From Candidatus Saccharimonadota bacterium (GTDB taxonomy: Archaea > Nanobdellota > Nanobdellia > Pacearchaeales > GW2011-AR1), in contig JBAZYG010000002.1 in NCBI GenBank assembly GCA_041659445.1, forward strand, positions 30,001-62,000: a stretch of DNA of 32,000 nt, given 5' to 3'. This document shows, one piece after another, positions 448 through 32,000 of this stretch (position 1 is the first letter of the stretch; every line of letters begins with the position of its first letter). Under the pieces are notes generated by a model. It searched no databases. It saw nothing but the letters and a program-made list of their open reading frames with translations, and had not been told where the DNA came from. The translations under genes and the position numbers were made by a program.

Positions 448-897
448 TTATTCAATTGAAACAATACATCTCTCAGAGTCTTGTAAACCAGTAACTAATG
501 CACTAACATCATATCCTGCTTCTTGAGAATTAACAACCCCGATTTGATTATTTATTTTAACTTGACTACAAGATAAACCACAATCAATATCACAAGGATT
601 TACACTATAAATTTCAAATTCACTTAATCCTGCTAAAACATAACAACTTGTTTTTACTTTATTTCCTTCTCCATCTTTTATATCTCTTTGAGTATTACAA
701 AAGTCATATTTACTTTGAATAGAACAAGCAGAATCACAAGTATTCACAACATTATCAACGTTACTTGATTTAATAAAAGGTGCAACTTTATCCCAACCCA
801 TTGTAAAACCAAGAATTAAAACAACTAAAACAATAAGTCCTAATATCAATAAAATTATTGTATTAGTACTCATACTTTGACCTCTTTTGTTATTCAT
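448..897 (-). CDS. Type IV pilin-like protein (class III signal peptide) with an 8-Cys C-terminal domain; candidate major subunit
   Basis: The N-terminus is MNNKRG|QSMSTNTIILLILGLIVLVVLILGF: a basic stretch, Gly, then about 20 hydrophobic residues. Eight Cys lie in the globular part. It has its own consensus TATA box. Confidence 0.6.
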   Translation of the reverse strand: MNNKRGQSMSTNTIILLILGLIVLVVLILGFTMGWDKVAPFIKSSNVDNVVNTCDSACSIQSKYDFCNTQRDIKDGEGNKVKTSCYVLAGLSEFEIYSVNPCDIDCGLSCSQVKINNQIGVVNSQEAGYDVSALVTGLQDSERCIVSIE

Positions 898-918
898 AAT
901 TAAATCAAGTTAAATTTA

Positions 919-926
919 TTTATAAA
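919..926 (-). promoter_or_regulatory. TATA box TTTATAAA, -22..-29 from ATG 897
   Basis: Palindromic consensus archaeal TATA in the 37-nt gap upstream of the last prepilin gene. Confidence 0.45.
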
Positions 927-934
927 TCTTATTA

Positions 935-1345
935 TTAGTTAAATGAGTATTCTAAAACATACTGAACATTTTTCTCTTCAATTTTTTCTGAAAAAAAGTC
1001 TTTTAATTTATTAAAAAAAGATTCTGGTTTAATTTTAGATATTTTAATTGTTTTTAAATTTTCATTAAAAGAAATTTCAAAAGAATATCCTTCATTTTCC
1101 AGAACTGAAAAATCTATCTTGCTTAAAATTTGGTCATTACTTAAATTCAAATTTTCATAATGTTCCCATTGGTCAACATAAATATTCATTGCTCTAATAT
1201 CATCTACAACTAAAAAAGAATTATTAAATTTAAATTGCGAAACAAAAAAAGTGATTAATGCAAAAGTACAAAGTGCGAATATTCCTATAACTAAAATTGT
1301 AATTGGAACACTTGCTTTTTTTGAGATTATTTTTCTATTTTTCAT
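935..1345 (-). CDS. Pilin-like protein (class III signal peptide)
   Basis: N-terminus MKNRKIISKKA|SVPITILVIGIFALCTFALITFFV. The start overlaps the upstream stop by 4 nt (ATGA). Confidence 0.5.
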   Translation of the reverse strand: MKNRKIISKKASVPITILVIGIFALCTFALITFFVSQFKFNNSFLVVDDIRAMNIYVDQWEHYENLNLSNDQILSKIDFSVLENEGYSFEISFNENLKTIKISKIKPESFFNKLKDFFSEKIEEKNVQYVLEYSFN

Positions 1346-1671
1346 TTTAAATTATTTATAACTGCATCAATATCTGCAGGATTTTCTTTTTCATTCTCCC
1401 ATTTTTTTAAATTATTATAAATTTCATTTTTAATTGTGGGATTTCCAATTGAGGAATATACATAAATTGATTTCATTAAAATCAAATTCCCATGTGAAGA
1501 AATTTCATCAGAAAAAACACCTTGCTTAGCAGTTATGAGAGTTTTACCCTCTGATAAAAGAGATGTTGCAAAAACAAATAAAAATAAAACCACTAGAATT
1601 ACTACTGTTGCAATTATCCAACTAATAGTATCTCCTACTTGAGCAGTTTTATTTTTTTTATAATTTAACAT
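1342..1671 (-). CDS. Pilin-like protein (class III signal peptide)
   Basis: N-terminus MLNYKKNKTA|QVGDTISWIIATVVILVVLFLFVF. It overlaps both neighbours, which suggests translational coupling. Confidence 0.5.
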   Translation of the reverse strand: MLNYKKNKTAQVGDTISWIIATVVILVVLFLFVFATSLLSEGKTLITAKQGVFSDEISSHGNLILMKSIYVYSSIGNPTIKNEIYNNLKKWENEKENPADIDAVINNLK

Positions 1672-2197
1672 TTTGTTCAGTTTTTCTCACAATTGTCAAA
1701 ATTTTAATTAAGTAAACATTATCTGATACATCTGAAGAATAAAAATTATTTTCAACACACTTTACAATTTTTTCGTGATCTTTGTCTTCCAAATAACAAT
1801 CACTTTTCCAATTAGGATTGCCTTTTGAAATATTAAAAACAGGATTTAAAGAATTTTTTCTATTATAAATATCTACTTTAAAATATTCTTGAATTTCTCC
1901 ATCTTCATTATAATCCAAATAAATTGAGCATTTCTCTAAAAATTTATCTTCAAATTCTTTTGAAAAACTTCCATTAGAAATTAATTGGGAATTTAATTTT
2001 CCTCCCTTATCAATGCAATCTGCAATTTTTTCAGACAAAATTTGAGATTCAACTTCACGAACATCATAAGGAGAATTGTAAAATGAATTTACCATCAAAA
2101 CAATTGCAGTAGCAACTAAAATCAAAACCAAAAACCAATAAATAGAAATTATTTTTTCTTCTCCAAGTTTATTCTTTCTTTCAATAAAATTTAACAT
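1658..2197 (-). CDS. Pilin-like protein (class III signal peptide)
   Basis: N-terminus MLNFIERKNKLG|EEKIISIYWFLVLILVATAIVLMV. A 2-nt gap separates it from the upstream gene. Confidence 0.5.
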   Translation of the reverse strand: MLNFIERKNKLGEEKIISIYWFLVLILVATAIVLMVNSFYNSPYDVREVESQILSEKIADCIDKGGKLNSQLISNGSFSKEFEDKFLEKCSIYLDYNEDGEIQEYFKVDIYNRKNSLNPVFNISKGNPNWKSDCYLEDKDHEKIVKCVENNFYSSDVSDNVYLIKILTIVRKTEQNVKL

Positions 2198-2199
2198 TT

Positions 2200-2598
2200 T
2201 TATTCTAATTTTTTATCAATAGTTATTATATAAAAAATCCCATCACTATAAGCATTAACTTTTGCATCATTAAAATAAGAATAACTATATCCTCCTTTTT
2301 CAGTTAATTTTACCGTGACTGAATGCGTAATTTCATCTATAAAAACAACATTACTAAAATCAACAGAATTTTTTTCTGCTATTTCTTTTGCATCTTGCAT
2401 ATTAATTTTAATTATCATACCAAGACTAGAAGAATCTATTATCAATGCAATTTTTTTTGAATAAACTTGTTCTAAACTAATTGCACCTGCACCTTGTTTA
2501 ATTAAAAATAAAATTAAAATTATTAAAAAAACCAAATTTAATATTATAAAAATAACATTTTCAACTAGAATTTCACCATTCTTTTTTTTATCAAACAT
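2200..2598 (-). CDS. Pilin-like protein (class III signal peptide)
   Basis: N-terminus MFDKKKNG|EILVENVIFIILNLVFLIILILFLI. A TATA-like TTTATTAA sits at 2620-2627. Confidence 0.55.
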   Translation of the reverse strand: MFDKKKNGEILVENVIFIILNLVFLIILILFLIKQGAGAISLEQVYSKKIALIIDSSSLGMIIKINMQDAKEIAEKNSVDFSNVVFIDEITHSVTVKLTEKGGYSYSYFNDAKVNAYSDGIFYIITIDKKLE

Positions 2599-2641
2599 AT
2601 TTTTAAGAATGATTTTTAATTAATAAAACTTTTTATAAAAA

Positions 2642-3568
2642 TTAAGAAAGAGTTTCTATGTTTTTACATCCAATAGAATTTAATTCTTCTGAAGGAGATT
2701 CTATTAAAGATGGCGGAATCATTTCTCCACCCCATGTAGATTGAACAACCGGTGCTAAAAAGTATGCCCCAGTTCCTGTAGCTGCAGAAGCCCCACCAAC
2801 AATTGCAAATGAAGCCCAAAGACTGGCACTTCCTGTAAAAGGAGCTAAAATAATCCCTGTTGCAATAATTCCCCCTCCAATAGCACCTCCGACAGCATAA
2901 CCTAATTTACTAACATCACTAGTAACTCCAATTAAAACTTTATATTGTTTATCTAAGTTTATTTTACCGAAAGAAACAGAACTAATATTTTCCAAATTTA
3001 AAAAAGAATTATAATTATTTGTTCCATATAAATATTCTGAATAAGTAATTTCTTTTTCATTCATTTTTGTTTCTGCTATATATTTGTAAAAATTTTCTTT
3101 ATCAAATTCCCCAGATTCAAAACCAGAAATTCCCTTAACACTATCATCAAAAGCTACTTGCGCGCAAAATGAACAATACATTTCTGGAAATGCTTCTTTT
3201 CCAATGTAATTTAATTCACCCTCGCCAAACATCCACCAACAATCAGATAATTCTAATGCAAGGGCTTGATAAACTTCATCAGATGTTTTTACTTTGACTT
3301 TTTCTGGTTTTAAAAATTGTTCACAAGTTCCATCTTTTGTAATACAAACATATTGTGTTTCACATTTTAAAGGAACAGATTCTGTAGGAATTAATTTATT
3401 TGATCTTAAAACAATTGAATTATGACAAACTTCTGCTTCGCTTTCTTGTCCTAAATTTAATTTAATTAAAAAATAAAGCAAGATTATAAAACTAAGAATT
3501 AAAATAATCAACAAAACAATTTGTTGTGTTGTAAGTTCTCCACGTTTATTCTTTTTATTATTCAACAT
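2642..3568 (-). CDS. Large pilin-like protein with a Cys-rich ectodomain and a C-terminal Gly-rich double hydrophobic segment
   Basis: The track ORF starts at 3583. I prefer Met6 (ATG at 3568), giving MLNNKKNKRG|ELTTQQIVLLIILILSFIILLYFLI. The C-terminus reads GYAVGGAIGGGIIATGIILAPFTGSASLWASFAIVGGASAATGTGAYFLAPVV. Confidence 0.55.
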   Translation of the reverse strand: MLNNKKNKRGELTTQQIVLLIILILSFIILLYFLIKLNLGQESEAEVCHNSIVLRSNKLIPTESVPLKCETQYVCITKDGTCEQFLKPEKVKVKTSDEVYQALALELSDCWWMFGEGELNYIGKEAFPEMYCSFCAQVAFDDSVKGISGFESGEFDKENFYKYIAETKMNEKEITYSEYLYGTNNYNSFLNLENISSVSFGKINLDKQYKVLIGVTSDVSKLGYAVGGAIGGGIIATGIILAPFTGSASLWASFAIVGGASAATGTGAYFLAPVVQSTWGGEMIPPSLIESPSEELNSIGCKNIETLS

Positions 3569-3569
3569 T

Positions 3570-3671
3570 TTACATTGCTCCAATTTTTCGTAAAAGTAAA
3601 TATATTCCTGCTAAAGCCAAAATGAATAATGCAATCCATAAAATATATTTTCCAACATCATCCAAATCCAT
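3570..3671 (-). CDS. Possible 33-aa single-TM micro-protein
   Basis: Absent from the track. My translation is MDLDDVGKYILWIALFILALAGIYLLLRKIGAM. The stop TAA (3570-3572) abuts the ATG at 3568 of the next gene, and the start overlaps the end of the upstream gene by 14 nt. Confidence 0.2.
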   Translation of the reverse strand: MDLDDVGKYILWIALFILALAGIYLLLRKIGAM

Positions 3672-4185
3672 ATTTTGTTACCTCTATTTTGTTATTTACT
3701 TTTTTAATTTGAATATTTGTAAAACCATTACTTAATTTTTCAATTGGAATTTCTTCAAAAGAATTTAAGTTTTCAATGATTAAACAAGTGCCGTCCTCAG
3801 AGCATTCTTTTTCTTGACGATTTTCTGCAGTATAAACAAGATAATCTTCTCTTACACTATCACAAATACAAAGACAATTTGAATTAGAACAAGAATCTGG
3901 TTTTCTAACATCTCCGACAAAACTGAAAATTGACCATTTTAGAGGAGAAATTTCATTTACTTTTCCAACAAATGTCGAATTATATTGAATCAAATTTATA
4001 TTTTCCGAAATTCTTTCAATAGTTGATTTTGCTTGTAAAAGTCTTTTTTGATCAATATTTGAAAAATAAATTGCAGAGAGCAACCAAACTAAAAGTATAA
4101 TTCCGATTAATCCTAAAACGATTTTAATTACTTCTGAAGCCAAAAGCATTCCATTTTTATTTTTCACATTAGATAATTTTTTCAT
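3658..4185 (-). CDS. Pilin-like protein (class III signal peptide), Cys-rich
   Basis: N-terminus MKKLSNVKNKNG|MLLASEVIKIVLGLIGIILLVWLL. It contains a CSNSNCLCICDS...ECSEDGTC cluster. ATGA overlap with the upstream small ORF. Confidence 0.55.
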   Translation of the reverse strand: MKKLSNVKNKNGMLLASEVIKIVLGLIGIILLVWLLSAIYFSNIDQKRLLQAKSTIERISENINLIQYNSTFVGKVNEISPLKWSIFSFVGDVRKPDSCSNSNCLCICDSVREDYLVYTAENRQEKECSEDGTCLIIENLNSFEEIPIEKLSNGFTNIQIKKVNNKIEVTKYGFG

Positions 4186-4557: not shown

Positions 4558-6726
4558 TTATACTAAATTACCTAGGACAACAGCACTAAGAATTGTTAAA
4601 GCCAAAATTGAAATTAAAGCAACAATAAAATACATTAAAATTCCCTTGTTTAAATTCAAACCTGTTCTATTTATTTTTTCTAATTTATCTTCCCCAGAAT
4701 CAATTATAACTAAAGTTGAAGTTAAAATAAAAATTACTTGAATTAAATAAATTCCGACAGAGATTTGTAAGAAATATGGAGAAATCATTGCAGTCATATC
4801 AAAAATATCTAAAACTCCAGACAAACCACCTAAAGAACTTACAGATTCATTACTTAATTGGGCTAAATTTAATTTACTTAAAATAGAAGTAATCATCGAC
4901 GCTAAACCCACAACAATTCCTGAAAGTAATGGTGCTAAAAAAGTCATATTACTTTTCATATCCGAAACAATTTCAGCAAGCATATCATTAAGTCTTGCAG
5001 TAATCTTGTTAATATTTTTAACATATTCAGAAATACTCATTAAACTAACTGCAGCAATTTTTAATCCTTTTTTACTTGATTCAATTAAAATTTTCATAGA
5101 AATAGAAATTAAACTAGAAGGATAAACATTTATTGCACCTTGTCGTTTATCAAAAATTGATTTTTCAACACTCATTCCCATTTGTTGAATATTATAATTT
5201 ACTTTTCTAAAGAAGTCTCCTGTAACTAAATTTTTTGAAGATTCTGCAACTTTTCCAAATGCTAATTCAGTAGGTGTTCCATTTCCTAAACGATTACCTA
5301 ATTGAAATAAAGAATTGTTAAATTCTTTTTCAAGTTCTTTTGTTTTTCTTCTTTCAACAATAAGTTCTTTTGTTTTATTTTTATATGCGCTTGCGAAAAA
5401 AATTGCAATTCCTAAAGGAAAAAACATTCCCAAAATTAATGAGCCAATTCCAAATGGGCCTTTAACTCCCGAAGCTGTTGTTATAAATCCAAAAAAAGGA
5501 GAATCTCCTAAGAAACTAATTCCTAATTGAGAAAAAGTATAATCTTTTTGCAAACCAATTAATTCTGGAAAACCTGTAAATTGAAAAATTAAAGGAATTA
5601 ATCCTATAATTAAAAAAGGTAATGCTAAAAAGAAAGCATTAGTATAATGTTTTTTCTGTCGATATTTTGGATATAAACGATTTCTTTCAAGTAAATTAAC
5701 TTCCCCATAACCTCCTGGTCTTAAAACTAAAACTTTATCAGTCAAATAAAAAACTAAAAAAGGCACAATCAAATTAAAAATAATAAAAACATGAACATAA
5801 TTAAAAAATTCTCCAATCATTGCAGAAGCTAAAGGAAGTAAAGCCAAACCTAAAGTTGGTAAAACAACTCCAAGCATATACACATTTGTCAAAGGAGCTC
5901 TAACATCATGAGTAAACTTTAACATTTTGTCATAAACACCTTCTAAAATAACTTGCAAAGATTTTTCAAGAGCGTCAATTCTTCGAGAATTATCTGGTTC
6001 AAATAAACTACTTTCAATTAAATGAAATGCTTCAATAAATTCTGTAGAATAATCTCTCCATGATTCAAGATAATTATCTAAACTTTCTTTTATTGTAGAA
6101 AATTTTCCGATTTCAACATCATAAAATATTTTTTTGAAATCCAATGCTAAAGGATAATCTAAGTGCTCAGAAGCAAATGCAATTGCTTTTTCTAAATTTG
6201 GAGTATGTCTCATGTAAACAACGACGTAAAGCACTGCTGGAACCATTTGACTACTTGCTTTAAGCCTCCATTTTTTAGCAAGTCTCTCAGGATAATTATT
6301 TAAAAAAGTAAATAAAAAAATTGAAAAGGAAATAATTAAAACAAAAAACAAAACAGGAAAATACTGGAAACCTCCTTTAACCAAAGCCACTGCAACAGAA
6401 ATTATTAATCCTAAAAAGAAAACTAAAATAAAAGACATCACAGCCAAACCAACAGCTTGCCAAGATTCAATATTCAAATGTGCAGATGAAATTGCCTTAC
6501 CTAATCTTAATTCATCTTTTGCAGAAGGTTTTATTTTAATTGATTTTCCAAGATTATTTGCCCATTTTTCATAACCTTTTAATTCAACAGAAAGTTCGTC
6601 TTTAAATTTTAAATAAGATTGACTATAATTTCCTGCATTTGATAAATTTGTAGTATTTATTGAATTTTCAATTTTAGAACTATATTTTTTTAGAACATCT
6701 TTTACATCTAAATTATCCCTAGGCAT
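4558..6726 (-). CDS. Type IV pilus/archaellum platform membrane protein (FlaJ/TadC/PilC-like, two T2SS-F-type cytoplasmic domains)
   Basis: A 722-aa polytopic protein with two helical soluble segments separated by TM bundles. The first is RLKASSQMVPAVLYVVVYMRHTPNLEKAIAFASEHLDYPLALDF. The second is LFQLGNRLGNGTPTELAFGKVAESS...SLISISMKILIESSKKG. It lies in the same cluster as the secretion ATPase and prepilins. An SD-like GTGAT sits 6-10 nt upstream of the ATG. Confidence 0.7.
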   Translation of the reverse strand: MPRDNLDVKDVLKKYSSKIENSINTTNLSNAGNYSQSYLKFKDELSVELKGYEKWANNLGKSIKIKPSAKDELRLGKAISSAHLNIESWQAVGLAVMSFILVFFLGLIISVAVALVKGGFQYFPVLFFVLIISFSIFLFTFLNNYPERLAKKWRLKASSQMVPAVLYVVVYMRHTPNLEKAIAFASEHLDYPLALDFKKIFYDVEIGKFSTIKESLDNYLESWRDYSTEFIEAFHLIESSLFEPDNSRRIDALEKSLQVILEGVYDKMLKFTHDVRAPLTNVYMLGVVLPTLGLALLPLASAMIGEFFNYVHVFIIFNLIVPFLVFYLTDKVLVLRPGGYGEVNLLERNRLYPKYRQKKHYTNAFFLALPFLIIGLIPLIFQFTGFPELIGLQKDYTFSQLGISFLGDSPFFGFITTASGVKGPFGIGSLILGMFFPLGIAIFFASAYKNKTKELIVERRKTKELEKEFNNSLFQLGNRLGNGTPTELAFGKVAESSKNLVTGDFFRKVNYNIQQMGMSVEKSIFDKRQGAINVYPSSLISISMKILIESSKKGLKIAAVSLMSISEYVKNINKITARLNDMLAEIVSDMKSNMTFLAPLLSGIVVGLASMITSILSKLNLAQLSNESVSSLGGLSGVLDIFDMTAMISPYFLQISVGIYLIQVIFILTSTLVIIDSGEDKLEKINRTGLNLNKGILMYFIVALISILALTILSAVVLGNLV

Positions 6727-6811: not shown

Positions 6812-8185
6812 TTATTTTGTAAATATATTCTTAATTTTTTGACCAAATGTAAAACCATTAGAACTTGAACTGTCTATTTCTTCTCCTTGTTGATTACTTC
6901 CTGGAACTTGATTAACAATGCATTTTGCCCCATAGTTTCCATAGCTCTTACAAATTTTTGATTCACTAACACAATCATAAACTTTTTCCCAGACTTCATA
7001 ATAAAAGTCTCCAACAATTGTTGGTATTTCTAAACCATCATAATTATTATTTGGATCATTAATTGCAATTGCTTGTTTTTTCACGCAATAATATTCAACA
7101 ATATAATCTCCTGATTCAATAGGACTATTTGATTCACTTCCATCAGAGCAAAAATCTTTTTTTAAAGTCCATGGAGAACCCTGATAAACACCGTCTCTAA
7201 AAGTAGTTCTTCCAGAAAGTAAATATGCATCACCATTTCCTTTATTTGCAAAAGAATCTGTTTCTTTGCATTCATTATATAATCCTATAATTGCACCACT
7301 ACTTCCAGCAGCATCAGTTTCTCCACTTTCAGTTGCTCCAGAATTATCATTCACATTTGTTTTTGTGAAAAAATTTCTAAATCTTTCTCTGAAAGTTAAT
7401 GTTGAAGTATCTGTATTTTGATTTTGTGCTTGTGCTTGAACATTTCCAGAACCATCAAGACATTTTGCACCTTGAACTCCAAAATCTTGACAATTGCAAG
7501 AATAAGTTTCTTGTTTTAATTCAAAAGTTCCGTCGTTGAGTTCATAACAATAATACTCATTAAGAATTGTCCCGCTTTCAGCAGGTTGTGCTTCTTCGCT
7601 TCCTGTACAATAATCTTTAGCTAATTTTTTGTATTGAGGGTTTTCCCAATAAGTTGTTCTACCATAAATATAAGGGGCATTTCCATTTCCCCCATTTGCA
7701 TAAGCATCTGTTTCATAACATCCAATATAAGTTCCTGTTAAAGAAACAGTTCCACTGCTCGGATTTGAAGAATCACTTTCTTTTTCCCCAGAAGCTACTA
7801 AACTTGAATCTGATTTTGAATCGCCCACAGGAACAAAAATACCTTCAATACAATAATAACTAGAACCACTTTGTTGGACTACAACAATTGCACGATTATT
7901 ATTATCACAAAAACCTTCATGAAGAGAAACATTTGATTCACAATAATCTGTAAAAGAATTCCAAGTCGCATTTTCATAATAACTAAGAGTTCCTTTTTCA
8001 AAATAATTTATTCCAGTATCATTATCTGTGCAAGAATCAGAACTAGCTTGTGGAATATCTGCTGATGTAACTTGTCCTGAAATTTTTCCCCAAAAATTAG
8101 AAAACCATCCAGCAGAAGCAAAAGAAATTATAAAGACGAATATAAATAAAAACAAGAATACATTTGCAAATTTTTTATTAATCAT
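6812..8185 (-). CDS. Secreted Cys-rich repeat protein (three copies of a C-x-[DE]-[ST/N]-D...YYC module); function unknown, adhesin-like
   Basis: It has a Sec-type signal peptide, MINKKFANVFLFLFIFVFIISFASA|GW. The modules span aa 52-112, 156-242 and 306-422, joined by Ser/Gly/Asp/Gln-rich linkers. Details are in the findings. Confidence 0.7.
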   Translation of the reverse strand: MINKKFANVFLFLFIFVFIISFASAGWFSNFWGKISGQVTSADIPQASSDSCTDNDTGINYFEKGTLSYYENATWNSFTDYCESNVSLHEGFCDNNNRAIVVVQQSGSSYYCIEGIFVPVGDSKSDSSLVASGEKESDSSNPSSGTVSLTGTYIGCYETDAYANGGNGNAPYIYGRTTYWENPQYKKLAKDYCTGSEEAQPAESGTILNEYYCYELNDGTFELKQETYSCNCQDFGVQGAKCLDGSGNVQAQAQNQNTDTSTLTFRERFRNFFTKTNVNDNSGATESGETDAAGSSGAIIGLYNECKETDSFANKGNGDAYLLSGRTTFRDGVYQGSPWTLKKDFCSDGSESNSPIESGDYIVEYYCVKKQAIAINDPNNNYDGLEIPTIVGDFYYEVWEKVYDCVSESKICKSYGNYGAKCIVNQVPGSNQQGEEIDSSSSNGFTFGQKIKNIFTK

Positions 8186-8240: not shown

Positions 8241-10982
8241 TCATTCAAAATTATTTTTTATTTTACCAATAAAAGAATCTCTCCAATTATTTTTATTACA
8301 AGCTCCATTGAAGCATCCTTTTGAACAAGAAATATAATTTTCAGACCTCAACAATCCTGCAGGATCCCCTAACTCTCCGCAATACCATTCTCTTAAAGTG
8401 TTCTTATTAACACAAGAATCCTGTTCTATTCTTAAAATATTTTCAGAATAATCTCTAAAAGTTAAATTACCTTTTGTAAAATAATTCTTTCCACCATCAC
8501 TATCTACACATGTTTGCATGGTTTCATAACAATTGTAATTTAAATTAGATGTATCAGAATCTGAAATATATCTTGCTAAAAGAGGGTTTGAATCATCACA
8601 ATCTCTTTTTTCATTACAGAATAAAGGGCAAGTAGCAGGTTGGTTTTGAGAAATTCCCCAATTACAAAATCCATCATTATCTTTATCTACACAATTAGGT
8701 AATTTTCCTCGCTGATTTGAGATGATTATTGCATGCTTAACAGGATCAGCAGCTAAACCCGGAACAGATCTATAAGCATCATTATCTATTTCTATATAAG
8801 CATATCCTTCCCCGCCTCCGACCCAATCTTCACCATAACTATTTTTAAAAATCCACACCACACTTTCTTCTTTATCTTCCCATCCAACAAGAGCCATTGC
8901 ATGAGTCCAAGGGTAGTATGCTCCCGCAACCACCCCATAATTAATAATCATTTCTTTAAAATTATATTCTCTAGCACATTTATAAAATTCATTAAAATAT
9001 TCTTGCCCAATATACAAAACATATTCTGGATTGTCACATTTTTCACTACAATTTGAATTTTGACCCAAGTAAGGATAGCATTCTTCTTCACTAATTCCCT
9101 TCTGAGAAACATAATTTAAAGCATATTCTGAGATACCACCTTCACAATCTCCTCCATTAAAACAAGTAGAAACAAGTTCTTGTTCTGATAAATTTAAATT
9201 TAAATGCTCATTAAAGAAAAGATTTGTACTTGCCTCTATAGCTCCAACTGTTGCAAAAGCCCAGCAACTCCCACAAATATATCCTTGATGATTTAATCCT
9301 GTAACCCAATTTTCCCCATGCCTCTCTCTCCAATCAAAAGATTCTGGAAAAATAAAAGATTTTGAAGAAATAGATGTAGTCAAATTAAAGGTATTAGTTG
9401 ACTCGTTAAAAGAGTAATTTATGTTCCCGAATTCAAAACCAATATAAATTTTCCCTTGAATTGTCTTTATAGTTATTAATTCCTCCAAACAAGAATTCAA
9501 ATTACTAAATTTCATAGAAAATGTACTATTATCTCTAATAAGCGAACTTCCCGGCACATTTATTTCATTAGGAAAAGCATAATTTTCAAATATTGAAACA
9601 TTATAACTTTCTCCAACAAAGCTCACATTAATTAATTCATTCACAAACTGGACATTTATATCTTGGGAATTATTTGAGTAATAAAGATAACTGTAATAGT
9701 TTATAGGATTCCCATTATAACTAACATTTAAAATGCTTGGTGCAAATTCCATCCTAAAATAGTCTTCATAAAGATAAATCCATAACCAACCAACCATATA
9801 TCCTTCTTTTGAAAAATTAAGCACATACGTTTCATGATTATTTCTCAACCCTTTAGTAAAATTAAATGAATACGGAATAATTCCCACAGAAAGAGGAGGG
9901 TTTGCCATATTTCGGTGAACTGAAACACTTGCTTCTGAAGGGTCGCTTGTAAAATTAAATTGAGTTGTTGGAAGTTTGGAAAGGTTATAGTTTGGGCTCA
10001 CATAATCTCTTATATTTAAATTTGTATTTTGCTCTTCTAAGAAAGGTTTTATTTTATAAACTCCTCCAGAATAAAAGAAAAAATCATAAGGAATTCTTAA
10101 TATTGAATTTTCATATTGTAAATTTTTAAGTTCTCTATAAAGTTTTTTTGAGATTTCATTAGTATTAAAAGTAACAGATTTTTTATTTATCAAATTTGAG
10201 CTTTTAATTAAATTTAATTTAGTATTGTATCTTTGATTTCTTAATTGATTTTCAGTAAAATCCGTTCTTTTATTTTCAGAATTTTGAAAATAAATTTTAT
10301 CTAAATTTAAATTTGCATTCAAATATTCTACTCTTAATTCTTTTATCTTTTTAGGACTATCAAATAAACAGGTTTCTTCACAAAAATTATTAAAACTAAA
10401 AGTTTCTTGTTCAATAAAAACAAAATCACTTCCAAAAACTAACCATTCTAAACCACCCTCTTCTATAGCAACAACTCTTACAAAGCCAGAAGAAGAAAAA
10501 ACTTCTCCAGATCCAGAAATACTTATCGCAGAAACATCTTCTTCATGTGGATTGAAAATAATTTTTTCTATATTCTCTTTAGGAATTTGCTCATTTTCTA
10601 TTTGATTAAAAATTAAATCATAGGAAAATTTTTTATTTAAATTTTCATTAGAAGCAAGAGTATTCTTTTTAATTGAATAAATATTTAAAAGGGAATTATC
10701 AAAAGTTCTTGTTTCAGAAGAAAAAGCAGAACTAGTTAAGGTAGTTTTTTCTTCCAATAAATTAATCTCAATTTCTTTAATCTCTTCTTGTTTTCCTTCT
10801 GTTTTTAAAATTTCAGAAGTAACTTCTTTTTCATCTTCTAAAAACAATGAATAACTCTTATCCCCAATAGATTTATCAGAAATTACTTTTCCTGTTTTAA
10901 TAGAAAAACCTAAAATTAAAACTAAAAAAATGAGCAATAAAAGTAATATAAAAAACAAACATTGAAGTATCTTTTTGTGCAT
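8241..10982 (-). CDS. Secreted or membrane-anchored multidomain papain-like (C1 family) cysteine peptidase
   Basis: The N-terminal signal anchor is MHKKILQCLFFILLLLLIFLVLILGF. The C1 domain spans aa ~546-735. It carries the catalytic Cys in QGYICGSCWAF (Cys573, nt 9264-9266), His in WTHAMALVGW (His694) and Asn in KNSYGEDWVGGGEGYAYI. The C-terminal region has CVDKDNDGFC...DCDDSNP and a Cys module shared with the neighbouring gene. Confidence 0.8.
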   Translation of the reverse strand: MHKKILQCLFFILLLLLIFLVLILGFSIKTGKVISDKSIGDKSYSLFLEDEKEVTSEILKTEGKQEEIKEIEINLLEEKTTLTSSAFSSETRTFDNSLLNIYSIKKNTLASNENLNKKFSYDLIFNQIENEQIPKENIEKIIFNPHEEDVSAISISGSGEVFSSSGFVRVVAIEEGGLEWLVFGSDFVFIEQETFSFNNFCEETCLFDSPKKIKELRVEYLNANLNLDKIYFQNSENKRTDFTENQLRNQRYNTKLNLIKSSNLINKKSVTFNTNEISKKLYRELKNLQYENSILRIPYDFFFYSGGVYKIKPFLEEQNTNLNIRDYVSPNYNLSKLPTTQFNFTSDPSEASVSVHRNMANPPLSVGIIPYSFNFTKGLRNNHETYVLNFSKEGYMVGWLWIYLYEDYFRMEFAPSILNVSYNGNPINYYSYLYYSNNSQDINVQFVNELINVSFVGESYNVSIFENYAFPNEINVPGSSLIRDNSTFSMKFSNLNSCLEELITIKTIQGKIYIGFEFGNINYSFNESTNTFNLTTSISSKSFIFPESFDWRERHGENWVTGLNHQGYICGSCWAFATVGAIEASTNLFFNEHLNLNLSEQELVSTCFNGGDCEGGISEYALNYVSQKGISEEECYPYLGQNSNCSEKCDNPEYVLYIGQEYFNEFYKCAREYNFKEMIINYGVVAGAYYPWTHAMALVGWEDKEESVVWIFKNSYGEDWVGGGEGYAYIEIDNDAYRSVPGLAADPVKHAIIISNQRGKLPNCVDKDNDGFCNWGISQNQPATCPLFCNEKRDCDDSNPLLARYISDSDTSNLNYNCYETMQTCVDSDGGKNYFTKGNLTFRDYSENILRIEQDSCVNKNTLREWYCGELGDPAGLLRSENYISCSKGCFNGACNKNNWRDSFIGKIKNNFE

Positions 10983-11036: not shown

Positions 11037-13370
11037 TCACATTTTTCTTTTTTTGATTTCAGAATTCAACCATTTTTGCCATCTTGGAAAAACTTTATCA
11101 CTTAAAGGCAAACCAATTTCGCTAATAGTTTCATTAGAAAGTTTATGAAATTCATGATTTGAAAATTTATTAAATTCTGCTTCTAATAATTCAGGCATAT
11201 TATTCTTTTCAGATATTTCAACTATTTCTTTTTTTATTTTTGCCCTTAATAGGATATTGTCATAAACAGCGTCCCAATTTCCAGCCCAGCCTTTTACTTT
11301 TGAGGCAATTTCCTTAATAATTTCACTTTCACCGTTGATTAAATCATCACTAGGTTCTAAATCATCTTTTTCAACATTATAATTCATTAAATCCACAAAT
11401 CCTTTTTCAAGAATTGGATCTTTTTCCCAATGTTTTCGAACTTCTGAAATTTGTAATAGTCTTCTCCAAGATTGCAAACCATCAGCAGATTTTATTGGAT
11501 TAGCGACGGCAATTATATCTGTAGCTTTAAAACTTGTAACAGGAACTTCTAAATCATTTACAACTCTATCAAAAACACCATAAGGAGAAGCACCATGAAT
11601 TGTTCCTGCAACAACATTCGCTAATGCACCAACTCTCATTGCTTCATAAAGAGCTTTTGCCTCGACACTTCTAACTTCACCGACGATTAAGCAACTATCC
11701 CCTAATCTCAAACTTGTCCTAATTCCGTCGTCAGCAGAAACTTCTGACGTGGTTTTTAATAAAGCAGAACGAACTTTCATTCTCAAAATATTAAAATCTA
11801 ATTTTCTCATTGATTCAACAGGCAATTCCAAGGAATCCTCAACAGTAATTATTCTTGACTTTGGATTTATTTCTAACATCAAACTTCCTAACAAAGAAGT
11901 TTTACCAGAAGACCTTGTTCCTGCAACTAAAATAGTTCTTGCACCATCAATCATAAAACTTAACAAACCTGCAGCCAAAGGATTCAACATTTTATTTTGA
12001 ATAAACAAAGGAAGAGTCCAAGGACTTTCTCTATGTCTTCGAATAGAATATGCTAAACCATCAGGACTTAAAGGATTCTGAACAATTGCAATTCTCGCTC
12101 GAATTTTTCCAATTTCCAATTGAGTATCTAAAATAGGGTTTGCCTCGTCTAAAGGTCTTCCTGAAATCATTCTAAATTTTGCAGCCCAAGAATTTGCATC
12201 TTCAAAACTTGGTAAAATGTTTGTAGAACATTCATCATAAAGATTATGTCTAATATAAACAGGAACTTGTGAAATAGGAGCATTCAATGAAATATCTTGC
12301 AAATTTTTATCTTGAAGCAAAACTTCAATTAATCCAAAACCAATAGTATGTCTAACCAAAATATTTGCTAATTTATTTATTTCATTATAATCCAATTTAA
12401 TTTTTTTACTCTCTGCTAAATCTCGAATCAAATCTTTCGAAATATTAAAAAAAACCTGTCTTGTTCTTTCAGTGTCAGTAAATTCTTCTGCTTTAGGTTG
12501 ATGCTCAATTAAAACTCTTCTTGCTAAATTTAATAAATTATTTTGTTCTTCAGATAATGAATTTTCAGGAGGATTTAGATGATAAATTAATTTTGATTCA
12601 TCTTTTTTCTTAAAAATTGTTACTTCAGATACATCAAAATCTTCCATTGAAATAGTATATTGATCCATAATTTCTGCATCTAACGGAAAATCTGAAATGA
12701 GTCTCGTAAATGTGAAATTAGGAATAATATCTGCTCTGAAAATTTTAGAATAAATTTCTCTATTTCCTTTAGAATACCCTTCTAAATAAGGAACTGCTCT
12801 TTGAATTATTTTTGTTGATTTAATTAAATTAAAAATTTTATCAAGTAAAATTAAATAATTTCCTTGGTCTGACCTTTCAGTTCCAGAAATGTTTTCTAAT
12901 AGAATTTTTGCTTCAATTAAAAATTTTTTCAATTCAAAATATGCCCATATCGGATCTTTTTTCAAAAGATACAAAAAAGAAAATAAATCATTATATCTTC
13001 TAGAAAAATATTTTTCAGAAGTTCTTGCAATTTTTTCATGCGACAAAATTTTTTCTTGTTTTAAAAGATAAACATAAAGACTTGCAATTTCCAAAAGGCA
13101 AGAAGTTTCATAAAAATCATAATTATAATTTTTTTCCTGAACAAAAACAATTCTAGAAACATTTGAATTCTCAATTAAAGCATCAATTGTTCTTTCCATA
13201 ACTTCTGAAAATTCAGACAAGTTCGGTGAATAAGGAACATTCAAATAATTTATATACAAAACATCTTCAGCACCTTCTCTTCTAACCTCATAAAAATACG
13301 GTTTCGAATTCCTGTCAAATATCATAAATACTTTAAGTAAAATCAGTTTAAATGTTTTTACAAAATACAA
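11037..13370 (-). CDS. Type IV pilus/secretion ATPase (FlaI/PilB/GspE/VirB11 superfamily) with a long N-terminal extension
   Basis: Walker A is VAGTRSSGKTS (nt 11898-11921, verified by back-translation) and Walker B is RIITVEDSLEL. It also has LIVGEVRSVEAKALYEAMRVG and the His box GTIHGASP. The true start may be Met16 (ATG 13325), which has ATTTAAAC-like sequence at -22..-27. Confidence 0.85.
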   Translation of the reverse strand: MYFVKTFKLILLKVFMIFDRNSKPYFYEVRREGAEDVLYINYLNVPYSPNLSEFSEVMERTIDALIENSNVSRIVFVQEKNYNYDFYETSCLLEIASLYVYLLKQEKILSHEKIARTSEKYFSRRYNDLFSFLYLLKKDPIWAYFELKKFLIEAKILLENISGTERSDQGNYLILLDKIFNLIKSTKIIQRAVPYLEGYSKGNREIYSKIFRADIIPNFTFTRLISDFPLDAEIMDQYTISMEDFDVSEVTIFKKKDESKLIYHLNPPENSLSEEQNNLLNLARRVLIEHQPKAEEFTDTERTRQVFFNISKDLIRDLAESKKIKLDYNEINKLANILVRHTIGFGLIEVLLQDKNLQDISLNAPISQVPVYIRHNLYDECSTNILPSFEDANSWAAKFRMISGRPLDEANPILDTQLEIGKIRARIAIVQNPLSPDGLAYSIRRHRESPWTLPLFIQNKMLNPLAAGLLSFMIDGARTILVAGTRSSGKTSLLGSLMLEINPKSRIITVEDSLELPVESMRKLDFNILRMKVRSALLKTTSEVSADDGIRTSLRLGDSCLIVGEVRSVEAKALYEAMRVGALANVVAGTIHGASPYGVFDRVVNDLEVPVTSFKATDIIAVANPIKSADGLQSWRRLLQISEVRKHWEKDPILEKGFVDLMNYNVEKDDLEPSDDLINGESEIIKEIASKVKGWAGNWDAVYDNILLRAKIKKEIVEISEKNNMPELLEAEFNKFSNHEFHKLSNETISEIGLPLSDKVFPRWQKWLNSEIKKRKM

Positions 13371-28585: not shown

Positions 28586-31500
28586 TCAAAACCATCTTTC
28601 AATATTTTCTTGCTTTTCGTTTTCTTTTCCAAAAATACTGTCAATATATCTTTTTATCAAATCTAAATTTTGTTGTAAATAAACAGAAAGATGATATTTA
28701 TTTGCTAAATCTAAAGCAGTATCTAAATATTTTTTAATTCCACCTTTATTAATTGTAAAAATTAATTTTCCACCACAGATTGGACAAACTCCAGATAAAG
28801 GAGGCCTTCTTACAATTTCATTACACTTAACACATCTAAAATTTTGAGTAGAAAAACTCCTCAAATTACCCCTCATATCCCTTATAAAATGCCTTTCAAT
28901 AATTAATCTTGCAGTATCACTAGTATCAACAGCTCTTATTTTTTCAACTAAAGCCATTTGATGATTAACTTTTTCTTGCATCAAACCAAGCAATTTATAA
29001 TTTGAACATAAAACTCCGAGATTAAAATTTTCAGTATTATGGGTAAATCCTAATTTCAAAAACGGATCTTTACCATCTTTTAATGCATTTTTAACACAAT
29101 AAACATCTACTTCAGATGAATGTTTTTTCTTCTCAGCAAGATGATACAATGAAAGAGGATATTCATCGACCATCTCTAAATCTAGAATTTGATCATCAAC
29201 TTCCCCTGCATCTATTTTAGCATTTAACACAAGAGGCGCATCTTGAGTTCCTCCTCTATGACTAGGTAAAAATTTTCTTGAAAAGTTAATTAAAACATCT
29301 CCCAATAACATCAATGATGCTTCATCACCATCGCAATCTCTTCTAATTGCAGCATGCATATATGGACTTGCCATCAAACCCAAAGTATCTGAAAAACCAA
29401 TAAATCTGCAAATAACTCCAGCACAATTATGTGGAGCCATACAAACACCAAGTTGTCCAATTAAATCTTCTTTTGTTTTCACATTATAATAAGATTTCAA
29501 CCCATAAACATTCACTAAAAGATCGTCCATAAAATTACAAATATTTTTAAAAACTTCTTCTCCTCTTTCATCTGGATTTTCAGGAGAACTTGGAATCAAC
29601 ACATCATGGGGCATTAATTCTAAAATTTGATTTTCATTAACAAGAGGATTTCCATAAACATCTTCGTCATAACCAAGTTCTTTTAATTTTTCAACAGAAA
29701 CTTTAATTTCCTTTGGCTTAAAGGCTATTAAAGGAAGTTCTGTTGCATCAAGACGAATTGTTCCATCTTTATTAACTTGAAGATTATATTTTGCTCTTAA
29801 AATTCCTTTAACTAAATTTTCTGGAATTTTTGAGTCAGAACTTAATCCTCTAACGCCTTTTATTAAAACAGGCATTTCTTCTTTGTTTAGTTTCAAAATC
29901 TCTTTAGCAGAATTTAAATAAGAACAAATATCTAATTCTTTGAAAATAGTCGGCTTCCCTTCTTTAACAGAATTCTTAATATTTTTTTCAAAAGAAGATT
30001 CTTTAATCTCATAAAAATAATATTTTTGTTTAGTCATTTTTTTACAATTTTCACAATGAGGATAAATTGATTCTTTTCCACAATCTTCACAATAAAAATA
30101 AGGAAAAATTCCTTTGACTTTCCCAACTTTACAAGCTTCATTAACACTTCGTAATCTTCCGCCTTCACTTCCAACAGGAAATAAAACATTCGGGCTACCT
30201 GTTAATTTTCTCACTTTTGCTTTTTCTGGACGACCCATTCTTGCTCCAATAAATTCACCTGATTTATCTTTAATTTCAAATTTTGAAAAAGAATTAATAA
30301 TTTCTAAAACAGGTTTTTCTAAATCAAATTTTTCTAAATCAAAATATTCTTTAAAATAATTTTTATTTAAAACTTCATTTAAATCAAAACCTAAATTCAA
30401 AAAAAGAGATTTTGCATTTACAACATCAATAATAACATTTTCTATAAAAACATCGTGAGAAATTCCCAAAAGTTCCAAAGCCCTTTTTCCCAATGAAAAT
30501 TTTTCTCTGTCTAATTTAGTATAAGGTAAAATTAATTTATCTAAAAAAACAGAATTTCTTAACCAATCTATTAAATTTAAAAATTCTTCTTTGCTTATTT
30601 CGTTCCAATAAAAAATAAATTTTGGATACAAAGGAATTTTTTCTTTTTCACTTATTTCTATTGCTTTTTCAAAAGAAACATTAAAATAATCTAAATTAAC
30701 ATAATCTTTTTTATTTTTTTCTTTTAATTCTAAAAACCACCACTCCTCTACAAAACCAGGTTTGATTAATTGCGCGTTTCTATTAATAACATCACTAAAA
30801 GGAAAAAGTATATCCCCTAAATAAATTATTTCTTCTATTTCTGAATAAAGTTTTTTTGCTTCATCTTTGCTATTTAATTTTTTAACACTACCATTACGAA
30901 GTTTTACAATTGGCCCATCAATAGAATCGTTCACAGTAATTGCACAACCTTTTGTTGGTTTTTCAACTTTTAATTGAGTTCCAATTGCAATAAAGCCGTC
31001 GGTAACAGCCATTGTAGCCGGAGAAATAGATGAAGCACTAAACCCAGAGTTTCGTCCCCGGCCATATCTAAATCTAAATCCTCCTGATCTTGAAGGATGG
31101 CTAAATACAGGTCTTCCTGCAACTAAATCTTTTATATACGTCGGAGAAGCATCAATTTTCCCTTTATCTCTTTTTTCATGAATTTTAATATATTCTTCTA
31201 AAAAATCAAATCCAGTAGACTTTACACCGTTTTTTTTTGCTTTATTTAAAAGTCTAAACCCCTTTGTAGCTTTTTGAGCCAAACCTTCTCCCAAAATTAA
31301 ACAAAAACCACTCCTTAAAAAATTAGTACTAACTCTTTCTAAATTTTTATAATTTGGAACTTCAATTTTTTCTGAGGGTTCACCGTCGACTTGAAAAGGA
31401 AGATGTCTTGCTAAAAATAATGTTTCTTCTTCAGTAGGCATATATTGTAAATTTGCAACTCTATCATGAAAATGTTCTAATTCTGTATAAACTCTTTTTA

Positions 31501-32000
31501 TTTCTTCTTCAGTTGGATCATATTTTGCAAAACCATATTTTTCTCTTAAAAAATCAATTAATATTAAAACCATACAAGAAGAAGTTGTCCCAGCACTTCT
31601 TATTGGACCTGAAAAAAAAGCCTTGAGATATTCTTTATTATCTTTTGTTTTTCCAATTTTAATTCCAGTATAACCCTCGATTGGACTTGAAACAACACCT
31701 AAAGTGATGTATGCAAATCCTATTCTAATTCCTGCATCAATGGATTCAATTAAATTTTCAAATTTACAAAATTTTTGTTCTGAAACTTCTTCAGCAATTT
31801 TAAAAATAATTGTCGGGTCTAGTTTACCATATTGCTCTTCTAATTCCAAAATCCTTTTAGAGATTTCTGAATCTTTCATTTGAGGATAAATTGTTGAAAT
31901 TAAACCTACAACTTTTTCAGCCATGCTCATTGCCAAAGGTATTTCTACTTCATTTACAGGATCTATTCCTTTACTTCTAGCAATACTTGAAATCCCATAA
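28586..32000 (-). CDS. DNA polymerase II (PolD) large subunit DP2; the 5' end lies beyond the right edge
   Basis: This is a very long ORF with Zn-finger clusters CEDCGKESIYPHCENC and CVKCNEIVRRPPLSGVCPICGG. It has the conserved blocks GARMGRPEKA, MAPHNCAG and RRDCDGDE. The frame stays open upstream of the track start (a TTG at 31936): ...YGISSIARSKGIDPVNEVEIPLAMSMAEKVVGLIS, which matches the conserved DP2 N-terminus. The gene is therefore truncated by the window. No intein-sized insertion is apparent. Confidence 0.9.
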   Translation of the reverse strand, partial: YGISSIARSKGIDPVNEVEIPLAMSMAEKVVGLISTIYPQMKDSEISKRILELEEQYGKLDPTIIFKIAEEVSEQKFCKFENLIESIDAGIRIGFAYITLGVVSSPIEGYTGIKIGKTKDNKEYLKAFFSGPIRSAGTTSSCMVLILIDFLREKYGFAKYDPTEEEIKRVYTELEHFHDRVANLQYMPTEEETLFLARHLPFQVDGEPSEKIEVPNYKNLERVSTNFLRSGFCLILGEGLAQKATKGFRLLNKAKKNGVKSTGFDFLEEYIKIHEKRDKGKIDASPTYIKDLVAGRPVFSHPSRSGGFRFRYGRGRNSGFSASSISPATMAVTDGFIAIGTQLKVEKPTKGCAITVNDSIDGPIVKLRNGSVKKLNSKDEAKKLYSEIEEIIYLGDILFPFSDVINRNAQLIKPGFVEEWWFLELKEKNKKDYVNLDYFNVSFEKAIEISEKEKIPLYPKFIFYWNEISKEEFLNLIDWLRNSVFLDKLILPYTKLDREKFSLGKRALELLGISHDVFIENVIIDVVNAKSLFLNLGFDLNEVLNKNYFKEYFDLEKFDLEKPVLEIINSFSKFEIKDKSGEFIGARMGRPEKAKVRKLTGSPNVLFPVGSEGGRLRSVNEACKVGKVKGIFPYFYCEDCGKESIYPHCENCKKMTKQKYYFYEIKESSFEKNIKNSVKEGKPTIFKELDICSYLNSAKEILKLNKEEMPVLIKGVRGLSSDSKIPENLVKGILRAKYNLQVNKDGTIRLDATELPLIAFKPKEIKVSVEKLKELGYDEDVYGNPLVNENQILELMPHDVLIPSSPENPDERGEEVFKNICNFMDDLLVNVYGLKSYYNVKTKEDLIGQLGVCMAPHNCAGVICRFIGFSDTLGLMASPYMHAAIRRDCDGDEASLMLLGDVLINFSRKFLPSHRGGTQDAPLVLNAKIDAGEVDDQILDLEMVDEYPLSLYHLAEKKKHSSEVDVYCVKNALKDGKDPFLKLGFTHNTENFNLGVLCSNYKLLGLMQEKVNHQMALVEKIRAVDTSDTARLIIERHFIRDMRGNLRSFSTQNFRCVKCNEIVRRPPLSGVCPICGGKLIFTINKGGIKKYLDTALDLANKYHLSVYLQQNLDLIKRYIDSIFGKENEKQENIERWF
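30314..30343. repeat. Perfect 15-bp tandem duplication inside polD
   Basis: tttttctaaatcaaa occurs twice in tandem, encoding FDLEK-FDLEK in frame. Confidence 0.9.

Follow-up and report, generated by a model that had tools for sequence, protein, structure and literature searches.

Within the 32,000-nucleotide (nt) stretch of contig JBAZYG010000002.1 analyzed here (the window), one minus-strand open reading frame (ORF) encodes a 913-amino-acid (aa) protein with a papain-type catalytic domain. We consider it fairly probable that this gene specifies an exported, membrane-tethered C1A endopeptidase zymogen of a Pacearchaeota/Nanoarchaeota-like DPANN archaeon, in which an N-terminal domain (N-domain) would act as the pro-domain and an insert between the N-domain and the catalytic C1 domain as a glycosylated spacer. 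The parts of the protein follow one another in the order anchor, linker, N-domain, 232-aa insert, catalytic domain, Cys/Asp knot, Cys-rich module, and tail. The core of N-domain, C1 domain, and Cys/Asp knot is new, as are the orphan insert with its dense N-x-S/T sequons and the three states in which the pro-domain-like part occurs (split, fused, and insert-bearing). The C1 enzyme family and the wide distribution of multidomain C1A proteins in prokaryotes were already known.

The N-domain accompanies a subfamily of C1 peptidases

The first clue to the N-domain came from a BLASTP comparison of the full protein with homologues of its C-terminal half, which had been collected with aa 535-913 as query. 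Dozens of prokaryotic C1 peptidases of 500-660 aa matched aa ~100-320 of the query with their own aa ~30-240 and had the C1 domain directly after this region. When aa 31-545 were compared exhaustively by HMMER with 1.84 billion representative proteins, 197 matches resulted, all limited to aa ~75-325. The C1 domain follows the N-domain directly in 100 of 144 representative matches, and nearly all of the others are short proteins. Because of this frequent succession, the N-domain is regarded as a dedicated companion of a C1 subfamily. Fusions with the N-domain directly ahead of the C1 domain were found in bacteria and in the candidate phyla radiation. No homologue aligned over the linker (aa 29-110). 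The initial annotation had described the ~515 residues ahead of the catalytic domain as one region of unknown fold. This region is not one block, since ~200 of its residues form a widespread C1-dedicated domain.

Modeling of the N-domain with AlphaFold2 (AF2) and 33 relatives (predicted local distance difference test (pLDDT) 74, predicted template modeling score (pTM) 0.71) gave an eight-stranded β-sandwich at aa ~111-234, with pLDDT values mostly between 80 and 95, and helices at aa ~244-303. The Foldseek comparison that had been proposed for the N-region yielded no significant match in the PDB. With the N-domain-only model no match was better than E 6e-3, and the matches obtained were generic jelly-roll accessory domains (furin P domain, InhA2) with a template modeling (TM) score of ~0.24. 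The N-domain was therefore assigned to no solved fold family. Its most conserved part is the C-terminal third, with the consensus KI..lN....W.AGETSVS.L.YEEKK.LF...PNL.GFEYY.GGIF, and the domain ends with the conserved aromatic/Gly segment PYDFFFYSGGVYKI (aa 298-311).

The profile of the N-domain was aligned by hhalign to a four-sequence profile of cathepsin B propeptides with a probability of 54% and an E-value of 1.3e-4 over 36 columns. With a single cathepsin-B-type propeptide an E-value of 0.0055 was determined, and the aligned pattern was I..vN...tW.AG.N.......kL.G. Cathepsin-L-type I29 propeptides, used as a control, aligned to the same topological region but more weakly (probability 1.5%, E 0.035). 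In the full-length model, which includes the C1 domain, the pLDDT of aa 301-310 was 92, compared with 45 for the same residues in the N-domain modeled alone. The earlier idea that the N-region serves as a propeptide thus gains support for part of this region from the hhalign similarity, the conserved helical segment, and the rise in pLDDT at aa 301-310. There is moderate evidence from the sequence profiles that the helical part of the N-domain may be a diverged C1 propeptide core.

Related loci encode the N-domain and the C1 domain as separate genes

The proteins closest to the N-domain, with 31-46% identity, stand alone; they are 250-456 aa long and stop exactly at the end of the domain. Split pairs of an N-domain gene and a C1 gene were read at four independent loci of the nearest archaeal relatives, L001, L005, L006/7/8 (marine, TARA), and L009. 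At the split loci, each of the two genes encodes a signal for export: a signal sequence in the N-domain gene and a separate cleavable signal peptide in the adjacent C1 gene. Two of the split N-domain proteins contain a lipobox-like Cys (...SGC/...SSC). The stop codon of the N-domain gene overlaps the start of the C1 gene by 4 nt (ATGA) in L001, L005, and L006-8, and the two are 1 nt apart in L009. The pair in L006 comprises an N-domain protein of 260 aa and a C1 protein of 749 aa. Its separate coding at four loci suggests that the N-domain could act on the protease in trans.

In the window protein, aa 313-544 fill the place that is taken in these relatives by the stop codon and the second signal peptide. 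The gap between N-domain and C1 domain in 122 fused relatives had a median of 20 aa (5-95%, 13-65 aa) and a maximum of 194 aa. The gap of the query, 234 aa, is longer than any of these. Longer junctions in the fused relatives hold PT-rich linkers, dockerin-like repeats, or Cys modules. The gap lengths and the varied inserts among the fused relatives indicate that the junction is a permissive site and that the insert is lineage-specific, and the junction between N-domain and C1 domain seems to be an insertion hotspot for domains. A scan of the genome collection turned up just three loci, all of them distant, and no orthologue with the insert.

Individual junction insertions were also recorded in the relatives: two dockerin-like repeats in P0166, a CxDSDGG Cys module in P0151, and other Cys-rich segments in P0129 and P0210. 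At locus L003 (2453-2984 and 3535-4641), an archaeal contig has in broken short ORFs just a fragment of a related C1/Cys-Asp-knot coding region, with 46% identity to aa 704-799. The fragment is located near a 368-aa ORF that was judged transposase-like by eye, and it is probably a decayed copy.

The orphan insert is dense in N-x-S/T sequons

Exhaustive HMMER detected no homologue of the insert among the 1.84 billion representative proteins, and aa ~330-545 remained unmatched. The window contains no paralogue of the insert, the insert itself is without internal repeats, and none of the retrieved proteins matched it. In the full-length AF2 model (66 sequences, pLDDT 68, pTM 0.69), aa 313-371 are coil, and aa 372-540 contain ~16 strands and no helices; 110 of 225 residues are placed in strands. 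The strand prediction and the aromatic-rich, alternating composition favor a folded β domain over a disordered stalk. A disordered glycosylated stalk was accordingly regarded as less likely, at a low confidence of the model.

The whole protein has 15 N-x-S/T sequons, and the 12 that were listed in the initial annotation are all present in aa 333-535. From the composition of this stretch 5.3-5.5 sequons would be expected. The cluster had a P value of ~0.001 by shuffling and of 0.0008 by a scan statistic that covered the entire mature protein. Its density is 5.6 sequons per 100 aa compared with 0.69 for the other 28 ORFs of the window, an eightfold difference. These other ORFs contain 62 sequons versus 61.7 expected and thus show no excess, and the next-densest stretch of 216 aa in the window contains 5. 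The control motifs [ST]-x-N, N-[ST], and N-x-x-[ST] were at expectation in the sequon-rich stretch. The concern that sequon density might be no higher than expected was therefore not borne out for aa 333-535, where the excess is specific to the motif.

The opposite was found in aa 31-320 (nt 10023-10892), where no sequon occurs among 29 Asn residues (P = 0.005). Because this region is free of sequons, the count for the whole protein is not raised (15 versus 13.3 expected). The depletion in the N-domain suggests selection on sequon placement. The N-domain genes of the relatives at L006 and L009 encode no sequon, and the C1 genes at L005, L006, and L009 encode at most ~1 per 100 aa. The ten next-longest junction segments of the family have 0-1 sequon each, and only the query insert is sequon-rich. 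Read by eye, the AF2 model places nine or ten of the 12 sequons within predicted strands or at their margins. The middle residue is hydrophobic or aromatic in 9 of the 12, the pattern expected of exposed strand faces. From the proposal of a glycosylated stalk or propeptide, the sequon cluster could be retained; the sequons are located in the insert, which is predicted with low confidence to be strand-rich, and not in the propeptide-like part.

The oligosaccharyltransferase AglB is not encoded within the 32-kb window, the part of the 222-kb contig that was covered. The genes aglB, aglD, and aglE have been reported in Nanobdella aerobiophila, a DPANN archaeon grown in culture, together with surface peptidases that have many predicted N-glycosylation sites (10.1101/2023.10.27.564410).

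The catalytic domain has an intact papain-type active site

A single domain was identified by Pfam, Peptidase_C1 (PF00112) at aa 546-735, with an E-value of 4.8e-31 and 109 bits (cut-off 20.7). This match, with extra domains on both sides of it, agrees with the multidomain papain-like protease that had been proposed from the sequence. The motifs CGSCWAF (aa 570-576), WTHAMALVGW (aa 692-701), and KNSYGEDW (aa 713-720) were found where they had been quoted. In HMMER alignments to solved structures, Q566, C573, H694, and N714 were in register with residues of cathepsin C to which we ascribe the roles of oxyanion-hole Gln and of catalytic Cys, His, and Asn. Cathepsin C was the best PDB sequence match of the catalytic domain (E 3.6e-21). 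Across the 66 members of the family alignment, H694 never varies, and the conservation of Q566, C573, and N714 is 90% or higher. The possibility, raised earlier, that the catalytic residues are misaligned in a profile alignment can be set aside, since they are correctly aligned, and the description of the active-site motifs as intact holds.

AF2 modeled aa 541-730 with a pLDDT of 85-96. Foldseek comparison with cathepsins and procathepsins gave E-values of 1e-11 to 1e-13 and TM scores (target) of 0.5-0.77, as expected for a two-lobed papain fold. Judged from the conserved residues, the C1 peptidase is probably active.

Elements C-terminal to the catalytic domain

The Cys/Asp knot contains the motifs CVDKDNDGFC (aa 764-773, nt 8664-8693) and DCDDSNP (aa 794-800, nt 8583-8603). 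The family consensus at aa 764-771 is CxDxDxDG, with G771 in the query. The positions D766, D768, D770, W775, G776, P782, D794, and D797 each show 90% conservation or more in 66 relatives. The knot is present after the C1 domain in most relatives and was modeled by AF2 with a pLDDT of ~95. DxDxDG is a classical calcium-binding loop motif. The initial description as a Ca/metal-binding-like Cys-Asp element was reasonable for this conserved module of the DxDxDG type, which is a probable Ca-binding, disulfide-stabilized mini-domain. The knot is a hallmark of the family and is not peculiar to the window gene.

The Cys-rich module that follows (aa 816-897) matched the neighboring ORF 6812-8185 in BLASTP with an E-value of 0.005, in line with the shared Cys module named in the initial annotation. 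The module was also found in other family members and in proteins encoded between the ATPase and platform genes of orthologous pilus loci (slot proteins, see below). The protein ends with a tail, for which AF2 placed a helix at aa 897-911 with low confidence. Similar tails are present on ORF 6812-8185 and on slot proteins of L013, L021, L036, and L091.

Proposed mode of action

In the proposed zymogen, the N-domain would be the pro-domain of the C1 subfamily and would serve both as folding aid and as inhibitor. Until its removal outside the cell, the segment at aa 298-311 would be docked to the catalytic domain. The insert may be a folded spacer domain carrying N-glycans attached by AglB, and the glycosylated insert could keep the enzyme off the membrane and protect the junction against cleavage by proteases. 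By its C-terminal Cys module and tail, the enzyme would be fixed in the surface context of the other Cys-rich proteins of the locus. The putative substrates are extracellular proteins, taken from the host surface or used as nutrients, and not pilins.

Several points weigh against this assignment. Neither Pfam nor NCBIfam, in the copies searched, has a model for the N-domain, NCBIfam gave no match for the protease at all, and a search of the PDB with its profile retrieved no relative, only a spurious match to Nop10 at E 0.1. When the 33 N-domain sequences were compared with Pfam at E-values up to 10, only scattered single matches were obtained; the cathepsin B propeptide family PF08127 was touched by one of the 33 members (E 0.12), and neither it nor the I29 propeptide family PF08246 matched the query. 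Two of the four cathepsin B propeptide sequences in the hhalign profile had been entered by hand, and the support from hhalign for the likeness to a propeptide is modest. The gain in pLDDT at aa 301-310 could stem from the deeper alignment of the full-length model and not from docking. For the insert, the AF2 pLDDT was 25-72, so that the folded β domain is a prediction of low confidence, and we infer its N-glycosylation from the sequence alone.

The protease gene occupies a variable slot in a pilus locus

The protease gene is located between genes for an ATPase and a platform protein of an archaeal type IV filament, and seven genes for small pilin-like proteins are encoded nearby (Table 1). 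The latter had no Pfam match. The pilus cluster noted in the initial annotation is thus present. Orthologues of the ATPase with 71-78% identity were used to compare 80 metagenomic loci, 34 of which were informative for the content of the slot, each with >6 kb of sequence downstream. Platform orthologues (64-74% identity) were encoded downstream of the ATPase in all informative loci. The distance from ATPase to platform gene ranged from 70 nt to ~6 kb across the 80 loci.

A C1 domain, N-domain, or insert was found in none of the 34 informative loci, and the closest relatives of the protease are encoded in unrelated neighborhoods without pilus genes. Because no protease is present in the slot of these loci, a conserved or pilus-specific role is unsupported. 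The protease is a one-off occupant of a variable slot that has gained the C-terminal module of the slot proteins. A surface destination common to the protease and the slot proteins is possible. An attack of the protease on a host envelope, which had also been considered, is plausible speculation.

In some of the 80 orthologous loci, the slot holds unrelated genes. It often holds large Cys-rich exported proteins, such as a 1404-aa protein with 80 Cys in L027 and a 1265-aa protein with 39 Cys and 31 sequons in L077. A motif just past the signal peptide of slot proteins, SA(G)WF..(F/M)WGK(I)(S/T)G, also occurs in ORF 6812-8185. Several slot proteins have basic-aromatic tails (..KRLKDFFKNLF, ..KIIKWFQRLFS, ..KKILNWFRSIF, ..GQKIKNIFTK), and the tail of the protease ends in ..SFIGKIKNNFE. 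As judged from a handful of proteins, the motif and the tails could be a sorting or anchoring signal.

Table 1. Positions of the gene, its parts, neighboring genes, and related loci (positions in the window unless a locus is named)
Feature	Residues (aa)	Nucleotides	Strand	Basis or remark
Whole gene, 913-aa exported multidomain C1A cysteine peptidase	1-913	8241..10982	(-)	ORF listing; stop codon included
Signal peptide or signal-anchor	1-28	10899..10982	(-)	MHKK + 20 hydrophobic residues, read from sequence
Linker, low-complexity, E/K/S-rich, not conserved	29-110	10653..10898	(-)	low pLDDT, one predicted helix
N-domain part 1, eight-stranded β-sandwich, conserved CEETC motif	111-234	10281..10652	(-)	AF2, homologues
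N-domain part 2, helical C1-propeptide-like segment and aromatic/Gly segment	244-312	10047..10253	(-)	consensus, hhalign
Orphan insert (232 aa), 12 N-x-S/T sequons	313-544	9351..10046	(-)	~55 aa coil, then ~170 aa predicted all-β
Papain-fold catalytic domain	545-745	8748..9350	(-)	Pfam PF00112, PDB alignments, family conservation, AF2
Catalytic codon Q566	566	9285-9287	(-)	checked by translation
Catalytic codon C573	573	9264-9266	(-)	checked by translation
Catalytic codon H694	694	8901-8903	(-)	checked by translation
Catalytic codon N714	714	8841-8843	(-)	checked by translation
Cys/Asp knot CxDxDxDGxCxWG...C...C...DCDDSNP	763-803	8574..8696	(-)	conservation, AF2
Mobile Cys-rich module C.DSDGG.NY..KG...D.C...L.E.YC...C..GAC	816-897	8292..8537	(-)	BLASTP
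C-terminal tail NNWRDSFIGKIKNNFE	898-913	8244..8291	(-)	predicted amphipathic helix
Upstream neighbor, FlaI/TadA-type ATPase of archaeal type IV filament		11037..13370	(-)	Pfam T2SSE; NCBIfam FlaI-like, E 9.5e-41
Downstream neighbor, 457-aa secreted Cys-rich protein		6812..8185	(-)	has Cys module and tail of protease
Polytopic membrane platform protein of filament machinery		4558..6726	(-)	sequence; orthologues
Seven small proteins, pilin-type N-termini (KRG|QS, KRG|EL + hydrophobic helix)		448..4185	(-)	read from translations
Split N-domain + C1 gene pairs		L001 92-2274; L005 1896-3865; L006 6742-9770; L009 1890-3264
Slot proteins		L013 2859-4565; L020 12378-14930; L027 12364-16578; L036 879-3314; L091 12454-13689

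Alternative explanations

The main rival to the zymogen is a cathepsin-C-like permanent specificity domain. On this view, which we consider rather unlikely, no removable inhibitor is involved: the N-domain, or the insert beside the catalytic domain, would stay in place and either act in specificity or exclusion, narrowing the cleft as in cathepsin C and making the enzyme an exopeptidase, or bind substrate or host. The order of β-domain, pro-like segment, and C1 domain parallels that of cathepsin C, which is the best PDB match by full-length structure as well as by sequence (E 3.6e-21), and the N-domain-only model resembles jelly-roll accessory domains of proteases, namely those of furin (P domain) and InhA2. 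The top two full-length Foldseek matches were both cathepsin C, with 388-394 aligned columns compared with ~235 for other cathepsins. This hints that the exclusion domain was co-aligned with a β region ahead of the C1 domain, probably the insert, which was modeled at low confidence. However, the extra columns had a root mean square deviation of ~17 Å and belong to the low-confidence part of the model, and the margin of cathepsin C over other cathepsins was small. The top 50 Foldseek matches obtained with the N-domain-only model did not include the exclusion domain of cathepsin C, and no DPP1 chain was retrieved from the PDB with the N-domain profile at E-values up to 10.

It is also unlikely that the sequons are unused or their glycosylation incidental, and that the insert serves mainly for binding, like an adhesin or lectin, or is a piece of sequence captured recently, without a dedicated role. 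The insert is an orphan whose fold is not settled by the AF2 model, the junction accepts unrelated insertions in other family members, and other exported proteins of the window are not enriched in sequons. Against this stand the restriction of the excess to N-x-S/T with flat reversed and shifted controls, the 9 of 12 hydrophobic or aromatic middle residues that fit exposed strand faces, and the significant depletion of sequons in the adjacent N-domain. A reading that combines two further ideas seems quite unlikely: the gap between ATPase and platform gene would be a cargo slot, with the Cys module and tail as signal for filament display or secretion, and the C1 pro-domain would be supplied in trans. 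The occupants of the slot would be large Cys-rich exported proteins and, in the window alone, a glycosylated C1 protease, and the arrangement would be an archaeal counterpart of type II secretion or of pilus-tip effectors directed against the host. A pro-domain supplied in trans by an overlapping gene for an exported, membrane-tethered protein is not mentioned for C1A peptidases in the phylogenomic review PMC10380794. Least of all do we expect the protease to work as part of the pilus system in the processing of pilins or of proteins associated with the pilus, an idea considered in the initial annotation. Its gene lies between the filament ATPase and platform genes on the same strand with intergenic gaps of ~55 nt, and it shares the C-terminal module and tail with the neighboring Cys-rich protein. 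Yet archaeal prepilins are cut at the cytoplasmic face by membrane aspartyl peptidases of the PibD/FlaK type and are not known to be cut by secreted cysteine peptidases. With no C1 domain, N-domain, or insert in any of the 34 orthologous ATPase/platform loci and the closest relatives in unrelated contexts, a pilin-processing protease was rejected on synteny.

Relation to known systems

The window protein resembles the C1A family (papain, cathepsins; PF00112) in its catalytic domain, with Gln, Cys, His, and Asn in register, in its papain fold, and in its presumed zymogen logic. It differs in that it has no I29 propeptide and instead contains the ~200-aa N-domain, the 232-aa insert, the DxDxDG knot, and Cys modules, and in that it is archaeal, exported, and probably membrane-tethered. 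Cathepsin C is analogous in its order of β-domain, pro-region, and C1 domain, and no PDB entry matches the catalytic domain better. However, the N-domain has no detectable similarity to the exclusion domain, and the exopeptidase and tetramer features are those of cathepsin C. With the cathepsin B propeptide (PF08127), the family may share a short helical segment, I..(I/V)N...W.AG.(T/N)......(K/L)L.G, directly ahead of the C1 domain. The similarity is moderate (probability 54%), the segment of the family is preceded by a β-sandwich that eukaryotic propeptides lack, and in the window protein the segment is 232 aa away from the C1 domain. Stand-alone propeptide-like I29 inhibitors exist, and the relatives of the window protein resemble these MEROPS I29 inhibitors in that the segment is encoded in trans.

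Prokaryotic C1A proteins with extra domains are widespread, DPANN included (Kordis & Turk 2023, PMC10380794), and the window protein is likewise a C1A protein with extra domains. The multidomain forms were explicitly left unanalyzed in that review, which names a single solved example, a C1A domain fused to a lectin domain. The window protein differs by its core of N-domain, C1 domain, and Cys/Asp knot, which has no Pfam or NCBIfam model and no solved relative. A further comparison is offered by the surface proteins of N. aerobiophila (10.1101/2023.10.27.564410), which also combine an extracellular peptidase with sequon-rich β domains in an aglB-bearing group. Those proteins are thermopsin-like and pectin-lyase-like with Ig-like folds and C-terminal anchors, whereas the window enzyme belongs to C1A and has its sequons concentrated in a single orphan insert.

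Multidomain C1A peptidases of prokaryotes are widespread and essentially uncharacterized, and the present case defines a conserved core. The occurrence of the pro-domain-like part in cis, in trans, or separated by an insert provides a natural experiment on papain-type zymogen control. For DPANN biology, the protein is a candidate for a surface protease shielded by glycans, with proteins of the host or the environment as possible targets. Provided that its sequons are used, the orphan insert would offer a compact test substrate for N-glycosylation in archaea.

Source and integrity of the gene

Identical copies of the 913-aa protein, with the same neighbors, are encoded on 4 contigs of independent samples. 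The long fused ORF therefore does not stem from an assembly artifact, and an assembly chimera was rejected as source of the fusion. Samples with the gene include ERZ27249449 and SRR6484324. An archaeal origin of the window follows from its genes for a PolD large subunit, an XPF/ERCC4 nuclease, and a Hef-like helicase. Among named proteins, those closest to the PolD subunit (~72% identity) come from metagenome-assembled genomes of Nanoarchaeota, Pacearchaeota, and Nanobdellota. With PolD present and its closest named relatives in Nanoarchaeota/Pacearchaeota, the DPANN origin assumed at the outset is supported. The G+C content is 21-32%.

A helix was predicted by AF2 at aa 2-27 of the protease, and no pilin-type K/R-G cleavage motif was read in its N-terminus (aa 1-28). 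The protease is judged to be exported from this N-terminal hydrophobic helix.

Several close relatives of the PolD large subunit (~1620-1680 aa) have an intein with a LAGLIDADG domain, and the copy of the window is without an intein. Its ORF (28586-31936, minus strand) is cut by the window end and encodes 1116 aa from a TTG codon; the database copy (P0265) has 1154 aa.

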